From assembly GCA_963695875.1 (NCBI GenBank), contig CAVOID010000014.1:32001-96000 (forward strand): a stretch of DNA of 64,000 nucleotides, in the 5' to 3' direction. The stretch comes from an uncultured delta proteobacterium. Lineage in GTDB: Bacteria; Desulfobacterota; Syntrophia; Syntrophales; UBA2185. This document shows, piece after piece, positions 16,122-23,377 of this stretch. Position 1 is the stretch's first letter, and each line of letters begins with the position of its first letter. The notes under the pieces are model-generated. The model worked only from the letters and a program-made list of their open reading frames with translations. It searched no databases and was not told the DNA's origin. A program made the translations under genes and the position numbers.

Positions 16122-16440
16122 CGGGCGCCGCTCCCGAAGGAGCTGCAAACCGGGCAGGTCTCCCCGGATAAGAACGTGAACTGTCGCTACACAACCGCAG
16201 CATTTACCCTATCTCCCGAATCCAGGGCTTTGTCATGTTGTGCTGACTTGCCCGGAGACTGGGCCTTGTATGCTGTTTCTGTTCGTCGGCTCATAGCTTT
16301 GCGCTCCGGCTTCCTTCGGACGGTCCCTCGCGGTTCCGCCCTTGCCTTCGGCTAGTACTTGTGTCAATGTATCATGACATTGACAGGATTCACGTACAGG
16401 GGACTTTCACCCCATAAGTTCACGCCCATGCCGGGCGTAC
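16111..16440 (-). ncRNA. 5' fragment of a group IIC (attC-targeting-type) intron; RT ORF and domains V/VI absent
   Basis: Minus strand starts GTACGCCCGGCATGGGCGTGAAC..GGGGTGAAAGTCCCC and continues through GTTCTTATCCGGGGAGACCTG, a IIC-type domain I; abuts an attC-like hairpin. Confidence 0.85.
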
Positions 16441-20762: not shown

Positions 20763-22341
20763 CTATAGAAAACAGTACGGATCTTTCTCTCTGAAAATAT
20801 CGAGGCCGTGACTGTAAGCATTCGCAAGACAGCCCCCGCACACGTAACGAAGAGGGCATGACCGGCATTCGGCACATCCAGCGCGATAGCGACGCGCGAT
20901 TTCTGAGTCGTATATCTCCCCGATTCTCTGGTCGAATACGTTTCCTATGGGAGAAGGAAACTTCCTGCAGGCATGAACCTCGCCGTCGGCTAGAATGGCG
21001 ACGAAATTGAATGCGGCCCCGCAACCGAAGCCGGTACAGCCGCCAAAGGGTTCCAGACCTTTCCGATACTTGAGGATGTTGATGAGGTTATCCTTCAAGC
21101 CTAAAACAGGGTTTTTACCATAGGCCTCAAGGTACGCTTTCAAGGAAAGACATATATTCCTGCTTTGTCGGAAGTTCAAGGCTCGCCCCTTCACCCACCT
21201 TCGAAAGACGATTGAAATAAAAAACATCCGTCTTCCCGCGCAGCAATTCACCAAGGGGGATAACCTGGTGGATGTTGTCTTTCGTCACGGTGAGCATCAC
21301 CATCGTATAGACTCCCAGTTCACGGAGTATTTCGAGAAAACGCATGGATCTTTCGAAGTGACCTTCTCCCCGGATGAAATCATTGTATTCAGGCAAACCC
21401 TCCAGACTCAACTGAAAAAAATCGGGCTGCTGGATGGAACACAGTGCCTCAACCTGTTCACGGGTTGAGGGATTTCCCAGGACGGACAGGGTAAAACCAC
21501 GGTCAGCGGCAGCCTTGTATATGGATAGAAATTCCGGATGAAGAAGGGGATTACCGCCGGTGAATGATACCCGCCCCTTCACGTGGCGCTCCCGGCAAAA
21601 GATATCGAGGTCATCGATGATTGTGAGTGCCTGCTCAAGTGTCAGCGCGGATCGATCACTCCGGTCATAGCAGTGTTTGCAATGAAGGTCGCAGGCCTGC
21701 GTGATATGCCACTGAAGGACGAATACCGATGACGTAAGAAAGTGTTTGCTCGTGTCAGGTGATGCTTCGTCAAGATCGCGCCGGATACGTGATAGCGGTG
21801 CAATGATGATTCCTCTGTCCACGGCACGATCCATGGCCGCATCAACCGCGAAGATCGGCAGCGTGCCTATTCGCGCCACCTCCCGCCTGTCGATGCCCTC
21901 AAATATCATCTTGAGAATGAGGAGATCCTCCAGTGAGGCAGCCTTCATATGAAGGCCGCCGTCTTCCGGATATTTCCATATCAGGACATATTCGTTTCCC
22001 GGTTCCGGAGCCTGTGGAGATAGAGATGTCACATTATCCACAAGGTTTTTCCATTGAAGCTCAAGTAAAATGAGTGTGGGATTGATGGCCATCTCCTCCG
22101 GATCACCGGGTATGGATACACTATTTTCTTTTACCCGGAAGATATTCCATTCAAGGCGGGCAAGTTCAGCAAGAAATTCAGGAAGGCGGGCATGAGGACC
22201 AAAATAGCTGATGATTTCAGGAAAGTTATCCGGTTTGTTATTCAGGTCATGGCTGGAAATGATCTGCTGCCATATGTCGGGATCAAGAAGGGAGCGACAT
22301 CGGGGATAAATGGCTGCAATGTCACTCTTTGAAGGGTTCAT
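20763..22341 (-). CDS. sbtM: Radical SAM/SPASM peptide maturase of the selenobiotic (thio/seleno-oxazole) family; frameshift near 21135
   Basis: N-terminal FLAELARLEW domain; QWHITQACDLHCKHC; SPASM GCTGFGCGAAFN...CRK...CRSCPLRYVCGGC; lies directly after the Sec-containing peptide gene. Confidence 0.88.
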
Positions 22342-22407
22342 CGATGCTTTTTTGAAACAGGCAAAGGATGGCGCATCTCCTATCGCACTCGTTTTTCACT
22401 TTATCTT

Positions 22408-22459
22408 CCTGCATGGTTTTCAGGGGAATGAACGCCTCAGTCCCTAAAAGCAATACAGG
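22408..22459 (-). promoter_or_regulatory. Long intergenic hairpin between precursor and maturase genes
   Basis: Nested stems CCTGTAT/ATGCAGG, TTTTAGGG/CCCTGAAA and TGA/TCA. Confidence 0.55.
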
Positions 22460-22475
22460 GGGGAAATTGTTTTTG

Positions 22476-22494
22476 ATAGTGCAAACTGCACTAT
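22476..22494 (-). promoter_or_regulatory. SECIS-like hairpin 3 (overlaps the stop codons and 3' UTR)
   Basis: ATAGTGC-AGTTT-GCACTAT starting 14 nt after the UGA at 22509-22511. Confidence 0.7.
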
Positions 22495-22748
22495 TACTTT
22501 GTACCGCCTCAGCTGCTTCCCGGCTTAGCCGGCTGTTCCGTTGGGGTGCTACCTGCACCCGGTTTCGTACCGCTTCAGCTGCTACCGGGCTTGGCCGGTT
22601 GTTCTTTCTGGATGCCACCTGCATCCGGTTTCGTCCCAGTTCAACTGCTGGCCTTTTGCGCACAACCAGACACCATAAGAGCCGAACCGGAAATGAGGGA
22701 GGCCAGGCAGAGCCCTGCAAGAATCTTTTTCAGTTGATCACTGTCCAT
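22494..22748 (-). CDS. sbtA: Selenocysteine-containing RiPP precursor peptide, 84 aa, 3 Sec (selenobiotic family)
   Basis: AAGGAGG RBS; MDSDQLKKILAGLCLASLISGSALMVSGCAQKASSUTGTKPDAGGIQKEQPAKPGSSUSGTKPGAGSTPTEQPAKPGSSUGGTK then TAA TAG; UGA at codons 36, 58 and 80. Confidence 0.9.
22544..22560 (-). promoter_or_regulatory. SECIS-like hairpin 2
   Basis: GGGTGC-AGGTA-GCACCC starting 14 nt after the UGA at 22575-22577; compensatory A-T to G-C change relative to hairpin 1. Confidence 0.75.
22610..22626 (-). promoter_or_regulatory. SECIS-like hairpin 1
   Basis: GGATGC-AGGTG-GCATCC starting 14 nt after the UGA at 22641-22643. Confidence 0.75.
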
Positions 22749-22788
22749 GTTAACCTCCTTAAACGCCAGTCCATCCTTTGCCTGTGTT

Positions 22789-22884
22789 ATTATGAGGAAG
22801 TATTATTGATCCTGTCAAGGAAGATTTCGGTTCCAACAAACTTAGGAAAATGGTCTTGACAAATTGAAAGCTTTTGCATACACT
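22789..22884. promoter_or_regulatory. Divergent sigma70-like promoters for sbtA (-) and the TA operon (+)
   Basis: Minus strand TTGACA(22818)-N18-CATAAT; plus strand TTGACA(22856)-N17-TACACT. Confidence 0.55.
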
Positions 22885-22912
22885 GTAATACAATAATTAC
22901 AAGAGGTGCATC

Positions 22913-23131
22913 ATGAGTACAGCAATATCCATAAGATTACCGGAAGATTTAGCCAAGCAGCTCGACAATATCGCCAAAGAAACAGAGAGGCCTCGTTCCT
23001 TCATCGTACAAAAGGCCCTGGAGTCATACTTGGAGGACTATGCTGATCTCCAGGTGGCTCTTGACAGACTTCACGACAAAGCCGACCCTATCATATCCAG
23101 CAAAAAGATGAGGGAGTCTCTTGGCCTATAA
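22913..23131 (+). CDS. Ribbon-helix-helix antitoxin (CopG/RelB-like)
   Basis: ISIRLPEDL...LDNIAKETERPRSFIVQKALESYLED. Confidence 0.88.
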   Translation: MSTAISIRLPEDLAKQLDNIAKETERPRSFIVQKALESYLEDYADLQVALDRLHDKADPIISSKKMRESLGL

Positions 23132-23377
23132 TATCGTTTACAAAAAATCTGTTTCGAGAGATTTGAATAAGCTTGCCAAAGCGGAAGCGGCTCGAATATT
23201 AAATCAAATTGAAAAGGTGCTTTTAAGAATCCCGAATCTTATCTATCCTTAAAAGGTAAATTTGCAGGACTGCGCAAATTCCGTATTGGTGACTATAGAA
23301 TAATATATGCCATATCGCGATATGATGTCATTATTTTCAGAATTGGTCACGGGAAAAGACCATTTAAAAAAGAATGA
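23121..23377 (+). CDS. RelE/ParE-family toxin (frameshift near 23225; absent from the ORF track)
   Basis: LAYNIVYKKSVSRDLNKL...LKGKFAGLRKFRIGDYRIIY...FRIGH. Confidence 0.85.

Follow-up and report, generated by a model that had tools for sequence, protein, structure and literature searches.

The 64,000-nucleotide (nt) stretch of contig CAVOID010000014.1 analysed here (the window; assembly GCA_963695875.1, an uncultured Syntrophales bacterium) carries on its minus strand, at 22494..22748 with the stop TAA included, an 84-codon open reading frame (ORF) that is identified by translation, with UGA as selenocysteine (Sec, U), and by its match to TIGR04081 as sbtA, the precursor-peptide gene of the SbtA/SbtM system. 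The frame starts at the ATG at 22748 and, once its three in-frame UGAs are read through, runs up to two consecutive stops, TAA TAG (22496-22491). According to sequence and translation, the UGAs lie at 22641..22643 (UGA 1, Sec36), 22575..22577 (UGA 2, Sec58) and 22509..22511 (UGA 3, Sec80, four codons ahead of the stop), all on the minus strand, and the 84-residue read-through product is MDSDQLKKILAGLCLASLISGSALMVSGCAQKASS-U-TGTKPDAGGIQKEQPAKPGSS-U-SGTKPGAGSTPTEQPAKPGSS-U-GGTK. Leader residues 1-26 match the NCBIfam profile TIGR04081, named 'SbtA family thio(seleno)oxazole RiPP natural product precursor' (RiPP, ribosomally synthesized and post-translationally modified peptide), with 45.4 bits (cut-off 30.5); the leader also contains VSGC, which we take to be a lipobox-like motif. 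The three cores are SS-U-TG, SS-U-SG and SS-U-GG, so that the residue preceding Sec is Ser, compared with Gly in print.

A perfect hairpin stands at exactly the same distance after every UGA, and the region that holds them corresponds to the 3′ two-thirds of sbtA. Hairpin 1, GGAUGC-AGGUG-GCAUCC (22610..22626), encodes D-A-G-G-I; hairpin 2, GGGUGC-AGGUA-GCACCC (22544..22560), encodes G-A-G-S-T; hairpin 3, AUAGUGC-AGUUU-GCACUAU (22476..22494), starts on the last A of the TAA (22496-22494), spans the TAG (22493-22491) and reaches into the 3′ untranslated region (3′UTR). All three begin 14 nt past their UGA on the minus strand, with the coordinates and sequences given in a preliminary description of this DNA; the compensatory swap reported there between hairpins 1 and 2 is likewise confirmed, as a single stem change in which the third pair, A-U in hairpin 1, is G-C in hairpin 2. 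All three stems are also returned by RNAfold, which adds one A-U pair to hairpin 3; this results in an 8-bp stem with the loop GUU. The energies of the hairpins alone are -8.0, -10.1 and -7.9 kcal/mol for hairpins 1, 2 and 3, and those of the 47-nt folds are -10.8, -13.2 and -8.6 kcal/mol, respectively. The terminal hairpin AUAGUGC...GCACUAU of hairpin 3 is present in many homologues as well.

In a scan of the 2.86-Mb genome for TGA triplets with a SECIS-like (Sec insertion sequence) hairpin, defined by a perfect stem of at least 5 bp that starts 8-17 nt downstream, an energy of -7.5 kcal/mol or lower and a central N-G-[G/U], 177 of the 113,564 TGA triplets are retained. Three of them are the consecutive in-frame UGAs of sbtA, and two formate dehydrogenase Sec codons are picked up by the same scan. 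A chance origin of the three sbtA hairpins is excluded. Tandem Repeats Finder detects at 22501..22649 a 66-nt tandem repeat (2.3 copies, 80% match), which generated cores 1-3 together with the hairpins. Hairpins 1 and 2 owe their shared 14-nt offset to this duplication, and their offsets are therefore not two independent observations; hairpin 3, which has diverged from the repeat, counts separately. It is highly probable that the three UGAs are read as Sec in an SbtA/SbtM system, each with its own bacterial SECIS element. The position of hairpins 1 and 2 within the repeat also agrees with a different view, namely that the hairpins are a functionless by-product of a tandemly copied peptide motif, G-A-G-G/S-T, that happens to be encoded by a palindrome; homologous loci provide the evidence that bears on this view.

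For the homologue survey, SbtM was used as the query and the best 80 of 179 relatives' loci were taken; a hidden Markov model (HMM) of the leader found 75 SbtA-like ORFs in 74 of these 80 loci. Every U or C after residue 29, with the window included, was considered a site (267 in total), and 194 of these were classified as core by peptide context alone. The 73 sites that were dropped consist mainly of U-x-U ends, the first U in ends of the type G-U-S-U, and junk from read-through past the true end. Removal of 15 duplicates left 145 Sec and 34 Cys core sites, with up to five Sec codons per relative, as in locus L069. A hairpin qualified if it had a perfect stem of at least 5 bp and a loop of 3-7 nt, started 8-16 nt after the codon and had an energy of at most -5 kcal/mol. 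A hairpin of this kind stands after 126 of the 145 core Sec codons compared with 2 of the 34 core Cys codons (Fisher p 8e-20, descriptive only), and 734 of 13,730 other TGA triplets of the same loci (5.3%). Both Cys exceptions, L061+ residue 88 and L083 residue 37, have hairpins that resemble the Sec hairpins of close relatives, and the two sites look like recent Sec-to-Cys conversions. Tandem U-S-S-U pairs with one hairpin for the two Sec codons occur in L028 and in L037/L043/L050. The presence, position and conservation of the hairpins, their covariation and their association with UGA rather than with UGC/UGU are thus direct observations of this analysis.

Selection at the RNA level is evident from an alignment of 144 distinct segments, each consisting of UGA plus 45 nt, that covers all core Sec sites, with or without a hairpin, and was made with MAFFT with no structure supplied. 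Standard pairs occupy 85.3% of the cells, compared with 26-51% in slid controls; 198 cells are changed on both sides, compared with 26-64; and the covariation score is 0.413, compared with at most 0.125. None of 500 shuffles reaches the observed percentage of pairs, double-change count or covariation score, and RNAalifold, unaided, predicts the same stem (its inner five pairs). Read as codons, the internal hairpin is GGU GCA GGU RGC ACC (G-A-G-S/G-T). Its first Gly codon has a synonymous third base that changes together with the base it pairs with, the first of the partner codon (U-A 97, C-G 27, A-U 7), and the same is seen for the first base of the Ala codon and the synonymous third base of its Ser/Gly partner (G-C 121, A-U 13). 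Covariation at synonymous third bases would not arise from selection on the protein alone, and it speaks against the hairpins as a by-product of a peptide motif. Paired amino-acid changes also preserve the stem (D..I, G..T, G..A, D..V).

Of the 126 qualifying hairpins, 90 are wholly coding, as a repeated peptide motif would predict, but 21 lie over the stop and 15 wholly in the 3′UTR, and these 36 covary as well. The latter point rests on 39 terminal Sec sites, picked by position only (at most six codons before the stop), whose hairpins overlap the stop or lie in the 3′UTR: 89.9% of the cells pair, compared with 18-52% in slid controls, compensatory changes occur in seven of the eight pairs, and 0 of 500 shuffles reach the observed values. 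At the locus itself, the earlier statement on the place of hairpin 3, over the stop codons and beyond them, is borne out: it runs from TAA/TAG into the 3′UTR. Its place directly after the stops, 134 nt ahead of the sbtM start, would also suit an additional role in setting the ratio of sbtA to sbtM expression, as a 3′-end stabiliser or partial terminator, and some Cys-type loci, for example L026 and L093, do carry a hairpin over the stop. Such a second role is nevertheless unlikely: the minus strand has no U-tract or terminator call here, the loop and position of hairpin 3 obey the same G-K-U rule as the internal elements, and its spacing from UGA 3 is the same 14 nt.

The arrangement of the cores differs markedly between Sec and Cys forms. 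Among the loci, the median distance from a Sec core to the next core is 21 aa, with 84 of 90 intervals being at least 13, whereas for Cys cores it is 8 aa, with 21 of 29 intervals being 12 or less. The motif [GDS]A[GV][GS][TASIV], 3-8 aa past an internal core, follows 79 of 105 Sec cores, a frequency that a copied peptide motif could account for, and 0 of 26 Cys cores, which it could not. An independent sample was drawn from 1.84 billion representative proteins, in which the leader profile had 438 matches; the best 150 of these were examined. A regular expression flagged 18 of these 150 as having a core Cys and 15 were accepted; their 50 core Cys residues have a median spacing of 8 aa (28 of 35 intervals of at most 12 aa), and the motif follows none of the 50. 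A word-indexed protein search with the SbtA of the window returned three matches, too few for a Sec/Cys comparison, and the profile search was used instead.

A natural deletion pair is in line with these counts. Loci L032 (four Sec) and L034 (two Cys and two Sec) are 89% identical. In L032 (2177-2242), two neighbouring UGAs, 18 nt apart, have one common hairpin; in L034 (2067-2310), TGC is found at both positions and exactly the 15-nt hairpin GGTGCAGGTAGCACC of L032 is absent, while the two remaining Sec codons retain their hairpins. L034 has thus lost precisely the hairpin at the place where Sec became Cys. Taken with the covarying synonymous positions, the hairpins beyond the stop and the absence of the motif after Cys cores, this loss leaves the by-product explanation largely refuted already, and we regard it as very improbable. 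The comparison supports the view that much of the inter-core spacer is translated SECIS, and the earlier proposal that the spacer exists partly to house the RNA signal is supported accordingly: Cys cores have neither the hairpin nor G-A-G-[GS]-T, they stand closer together, and the 15-nt deletion in L034 points the same way. A stronger form of this proposal is, on balance, slightly favoured. The sbtA SECIS would then be a compact, removable in-frame cassette: the spacer G-A-G-[GS]-T would be the translation of a SelB hairpin of 15-17 nt, Sec cores would be kept at least about 13-14 codons apart (compared with 3-8 in Cys forms), and the cassette would be excised precisely upon Sec-to-Cys reversion. 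If so, the repeat architecture of the precursor is shaped by a translational recoding signal and not by the product, and the family would offer a naturally optimised, phylum-spanning minimal SECIS for multi-Sec insertion. More generally, the Sec/Cys comparison means that the recoding signal constrains the peptide sequence and repeat length of a natural-product precursor.

Among the best 150 of the 438 database representatives, 103 end directly after the leader, cut at the first UGA. Such gene calls are what one would expect if the UGAs were true stops, with sbtA encoding a 35-residue peptide and the downstream repeats and hairpins acting as non-coding regulatory RNA (attenuators or stabilisers) between sbtA and sbtM. 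Stabilising hairpins are common between precursor and maturase genes in RiPP operons, and hairpin 3 does lie between two such genes. However, the frame is open through three UGAs to the double stop, Cys-type relatives have Cys codons at the homologous positions, and the core context [GSTA][GSTA]-U-[SGT]-G recurs at every UGA; the minus strand shows no terminator-like call and no U-run follows hairpin 3; Sec machinery is present in the genome; and SbtM acts on a Gly-Cys/Sec motif (Lewis et al. 2021, as reported in the perspective PMC9204691). Termination at the UGAs is therefore hardly credible, and Sec decoding is retained. Gene callers halt at the first UGA and so overlook the real peptide with its three Sec residues; with the hairpin rule, sbtA genes that were cut there can be extended in a simple way. 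In two database SbtA entries, P0143 and P0152, W stands at the Sec positions (GGSG-W-GAKK...); these were apparently translated by their source with a UGA=Trp code.

Under Sec decoding, each UGA would be served by a hairpin of 17-19 nt with its base 14 nt downstream and its loop G-G/U-U about 21 nt after the UGA. Following the established E. coli model, a UGA in the ribosomal A site would place the hairpin at the mRNA entrance, where it would bind the C-terminal domain of SelB carrying Sec-tRNA(Sec) and so out-compete release factor 2. SelB binding and actual read-through at the sbtA hairpins are predicted by analogy with this model. As hairpins 1 and 2 are inside the ORF, the spacer residues D/G-A-G-G/S-I/T between the cores would be set by the hairpin sequence; hairpin 3 lies over the stops and in the 3′UTR because it would serve the C-terminal Sec. 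A 3′UTR SECIS that serves a C-terminal Sec, natural or engineered, is already known (PMC10778597). Hairpin 3 is likewise placed over and after the stops, as in recombinant thioredoxin reductase in E. coli; compared with that construct, the sbtA arrangement is natural and is conserved in the 39 terminal sites examined. In eukaryotic selenoprotein P, distant 3′UTR SECIS elements serve many UGAs. Both selenoprotein P and sbtA have several Sec codons per ORF, but in sbtA, unlike in selenoprotein P, the hairpins are local, with one for each UGA or for each two UGAs that lie close together.

bSECISearch, the general model of a bacterial SECIS, as outlined in a 2026 review, requires a loop of 3-9 nt and an upper stem of 4-16 bp, a G among the first two loop positions, usually then followed by G or U, a UGA-to-loop distance of 16-37 nt and a minimum free energy of -7.5 kcal/mol or lower (PMC13188914). 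The sbtA hairpins do not differ from this model in any of its four constraints. Their loops are 5, 5 and 5 (or 3) nt and their stems 6, 6 and 7 (or 8) bp; the loop sequences AGGUG, AGGUA and AGUUU follow the loop rule; the loops begin 20, 20 and 21 nt from the UGA (14-nt spacer plus an arm of 6-7 nt); and all three energies are within the limit, with hairpins 1 and 3 near it. Sec machinery, with selA, selB, selC and also selD, is found in the same genome, selB in two frames. Of 120 homologue hairpins, 119 have G at position 2 of the 5-nt central frame of the loop, and all have G or U at position 3.

The similarity extends to E. coli fdhF, where the UGA is followed by 11 nt and GGUUGC-AGGUCU-GCACC (K-12), an apical hairpin of nearly the same sequence as sbtA hairpin 2 that shares UGC-AGGU...GCA with sbtA hairpins 1 and 2. 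The loop G-G-U lies 18 nt past the UGA in fdhF and 21 nt in sbtA, and 17 of the 90 coding homologue hairpins also have 18 nt. The loop is 5 nt and the spacer 14 nt in sbtA, compared with 6 and 11 nt in fdhF. Furthermore, the sbtA stems are perfect, whereas GGUUGC/GCACC of fdhF has one unpaired U. The sbtA hairpins thus have no bulged U in the upper stem, a feature that matters for SelB of E. coli.

The genome encodes the machinery that Sec decoding would need: a tRNA-Sec with 76.2 bits (gathering score 47), selA with 609 bits, selD with 395 bits and one in-frame TGA of its own, and selB as two pieces in different frames, with 164 and 207 bits. Together with the Sec/Cys hairpin counts and with covariation that includes the 3′UTR copies, this machinery substantiates the earlier suggestion of selection for UGA recoding. 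Other selenoprotein genes of the genome bear comparable elements. The fdhA hairpins, in two copies, are CAGUGGCC-GGUCU-GGCCGCUG and CGGUGGUC-GGUCU-GGCCGCUG (GGCC-GGUCU-GGCC type). Two OsmC-like (PF02566) paralogues, one at G000:C11:101030 (= L108 1765-2289, minus strand) and one at G000:C5:78872 (= L109 1092-1565, minus strand), have an in-frame UGA in the context '...AATAG-U-MMGTLA', with a G-G-U-loop hairpin 12 nt downstream of each (CUGGCCA-CGGUGA-UGGCCGG and CUGGCCA-CGGUGC-UGGCUGG), and are probably further selenoproteins. Neither FlpD/MvhD (PF02662) nor the NiFe(Se) hydrogenase large subunit (PF00374) of the genome contains a TGA in frame. In the fdhA and OsmC-like hairpins, the loop G-G-U lies 18-19 nt past the UGA; common to these and the sbtA hairpins is the loop G-G-U alone, 18-21 nt after the UGA.

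The preliminary description had proposed that other selenoprotein genes of the organism be compared and a covariance model be built. The first comparison has two sides, since the G-G-U-loop hairpins favour a SECIS function while the differing stems oppose a special consensus. Covariance model R1, built from the 144 sbtA segments, misses the other selenoprotein genes. It scores hairpins 1, 2 and 3 at 42.8, 46.8 and 39.7 bits, and in a genome search in which 150 of 492 candidates were scored it matches only the three sbtA sites, which are part of its training set; the next match has 17 bits (E = 5). None of the Sec UGAs of the genome's fdhA (three copies), selD and OsmC-like genes (two copies) is matched by R1. 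With E. coli fdhF, R1 likewise gives no match at the UGA, the best score at that locus being 6.2 bits, elsewhere. The sbtA-derived covariance model cannot serve as an organism-wide SECIS model. The lineage-specific consensus UGC-AGKUN-GCA that had been put forward is not supported. Its core is found in sbtA of loci labelled Syntrophales, Desulfobacterales, Nitrospirota, Thermodesulfovibrionales, Chloroflexota and Leptospiraceae; a hairpin close to it occurs in E. coli fdhF, and the genome's own fdhA and OsmC-like stems differ from it. The consensus adds little because the general bacterial SECIS model already fits.

Several observations weigh against Sec decoding through one SECIS per UGA. The folding of the sequence after each UGA, suggested earlier as a check, does return the three stems, but the single-sequence z-scores are weak (-1.5, -1.2 and -1.8), with 15, 23 and 10 of 200 shuffles being equally stable; one sequence by itself therefore proves little. 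Rfam, searched over 22300-22900 with E up to 10, gives no SECIS family among four chance-level matches (miRNA/CRISPR/scaRNA families), and in gathering mode over the whole window it gives no SECIS family either, although a group II intron is detected elsewhere. The surveyed sites are related by descent and internal duplication, so that neither the counts nor the Fisher p represent independent trials. Within the genome, the selD hairpin is weak (4 bp) and that of fdhA3 is borderline (-7.1 kcal/mol).

The homologues also contain exceptions, as 19 of the 145 Sec sites have no qualifying hairpin. Four of these have a hairpin 20-24 nt away, two of the four being the upstream UGA of a tandem U-x-x-U pair; one-mismatch stems occur in L053, L079 and L095, and nothing convincing is seen in several (L057, L065, L076, L083). 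Six of the hairpin-less sites, from L057, L065, L053 and L076, were folded and gave no convincing structure (z from -0.9 to +1.3). In L057 (2202-2297) and L065 (2204-2302), labelled Nitrospiraceae and Nitrospirota, only the terminal one of three in-frame UGAs has a hairpin, none being detectable for the other two; this minority of relatives may decode UGAs without a local hairpin. Either the hairpin is not universal, or the perfect-stem detector overlooks imperfect ones.

A further point concerns the integrity of the Sec trait. The maturase gene sbtM (20766..22341, minus strand), which encodes a radical S-adenosylmethionine (SAM)/SPASM protein with the Pfam domains Radical_SAM and SPASM, lies downstream of sbtA, its start 134 nt past hairpin 3, and is the only sbtM in the genome. 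It matches TIGR04082 in two parts in different frames, with 481.8 bits over profile positions 1-394 (cut-off 350) and 216.7 bits over 376-516. The frames are separated by one extra base in 'cttgaaagcg' ('gaaag'), at about 21136-21138 on the minus strand (within 21131-21141), after ...SFLE, and a tblastn comparison with the L020 homologue shows this single frame change. Contigs from all three public runs with a contig that crosses the site are without one letter there (X2 and X3 at 21136, X4 at 21138), and close relatives therefore have an intact gene; run X1 has no contig across the site, and run contigs are thin over the hairpin region. The frame split in selB lies at 'acaaagggg' ('acaaaggggcat'; G000:C9:79843-81742, L003 about 1495-1510). 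Both splits lie at short base runs, for which an assembly error is plausible; they suggest either assembly indel errors at such runs or real decay of the Sec trait. If the changes in selB and sbtM are real, Sec insertion and maturation would both fail here, which would also count against functional Sec decoding in this organism.

The gene, the RiPP system and a SECIS after its stop are already described. In PMC9204691, a perspective from the laboratory that characterised SbtM, the system is credited to a prediction by Haft, whose original analysis had the stop codon of the sbtM-linked peptide immediately followed by a SECIS; newer annotations are said there to place at least two Sec residues in this peptide, and SbtM converts Gly-Cys/Sec to a thio(seleno)oxazole (Lewis et al. 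2021, cited therein). The 2026 review has a table entry 'selenobacteriocin, TIGR04081, SGUG, 2 Sec' (PMC13188914), compared with which sbtA here has three Sec codons. The locus shares with the known SbtA/SbtM system the leader family, the adjacent maturase gene and Sec in a small-residue context, and its cores SS-U-TG, SS-U-SG and SS-U-GG fall within the Gly/Ser-rich Sec/Cys core of that system ('GGUG' and 'SGUG' in print). By analogy, the product of the locus would carry a thio(seleno)oxazole. The three-Sec sbtA is thus a member of a known system with a known mechanism, to which the contrast between Sec and Cys forms and the pair of loci with the hairpin deletion make a tidy addition, and the known mechanism of Sec recoding is unchanged by these findings. 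In a literature search, neither the pairing of every UGA with its own hairpin nor the different core spacing of Sec and Cys forms was found described, nor was the loss of a hairpin upon Sec-to-Cys conversion, although the primary papers (Haft & Basu 2011; Lewis et al. 2021) may contain these. From an engineering point of view, short perfect hairpins apparently support several Sec insertions per 84-residue peptide.

On the minus strand, a ribosome-binding site, GGAGG, read from the sequence at 22754..22758, lies 5 nt before the sbtA ATG, and a consensus scan gives a sigma-70-like promoter match, TTGACA-18-CATAAT (11 of 12 positions), at 22789..22818, which is no more than agreement with a pattern. 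In one contig of run X1, 181 different letters stand in place of 184 at 22343-22528, that is, over the 3′ end of sbtA and the intergenic region, and this stretch seems to be variable among close relatives. Elsewhere in the window, the group II intron match covers domains D1-D4 at 16173-16337 on the minus strand (RF02001, 137.9 bits). Directly upstream of sbtA, two small overlapping ORFs lie on the plus strand at 22913-23131 and 23121-23252; the product of the first begins MSTAISIRLPEDLAKQLD and resembles a ribbon-helix-helix antitoxin.

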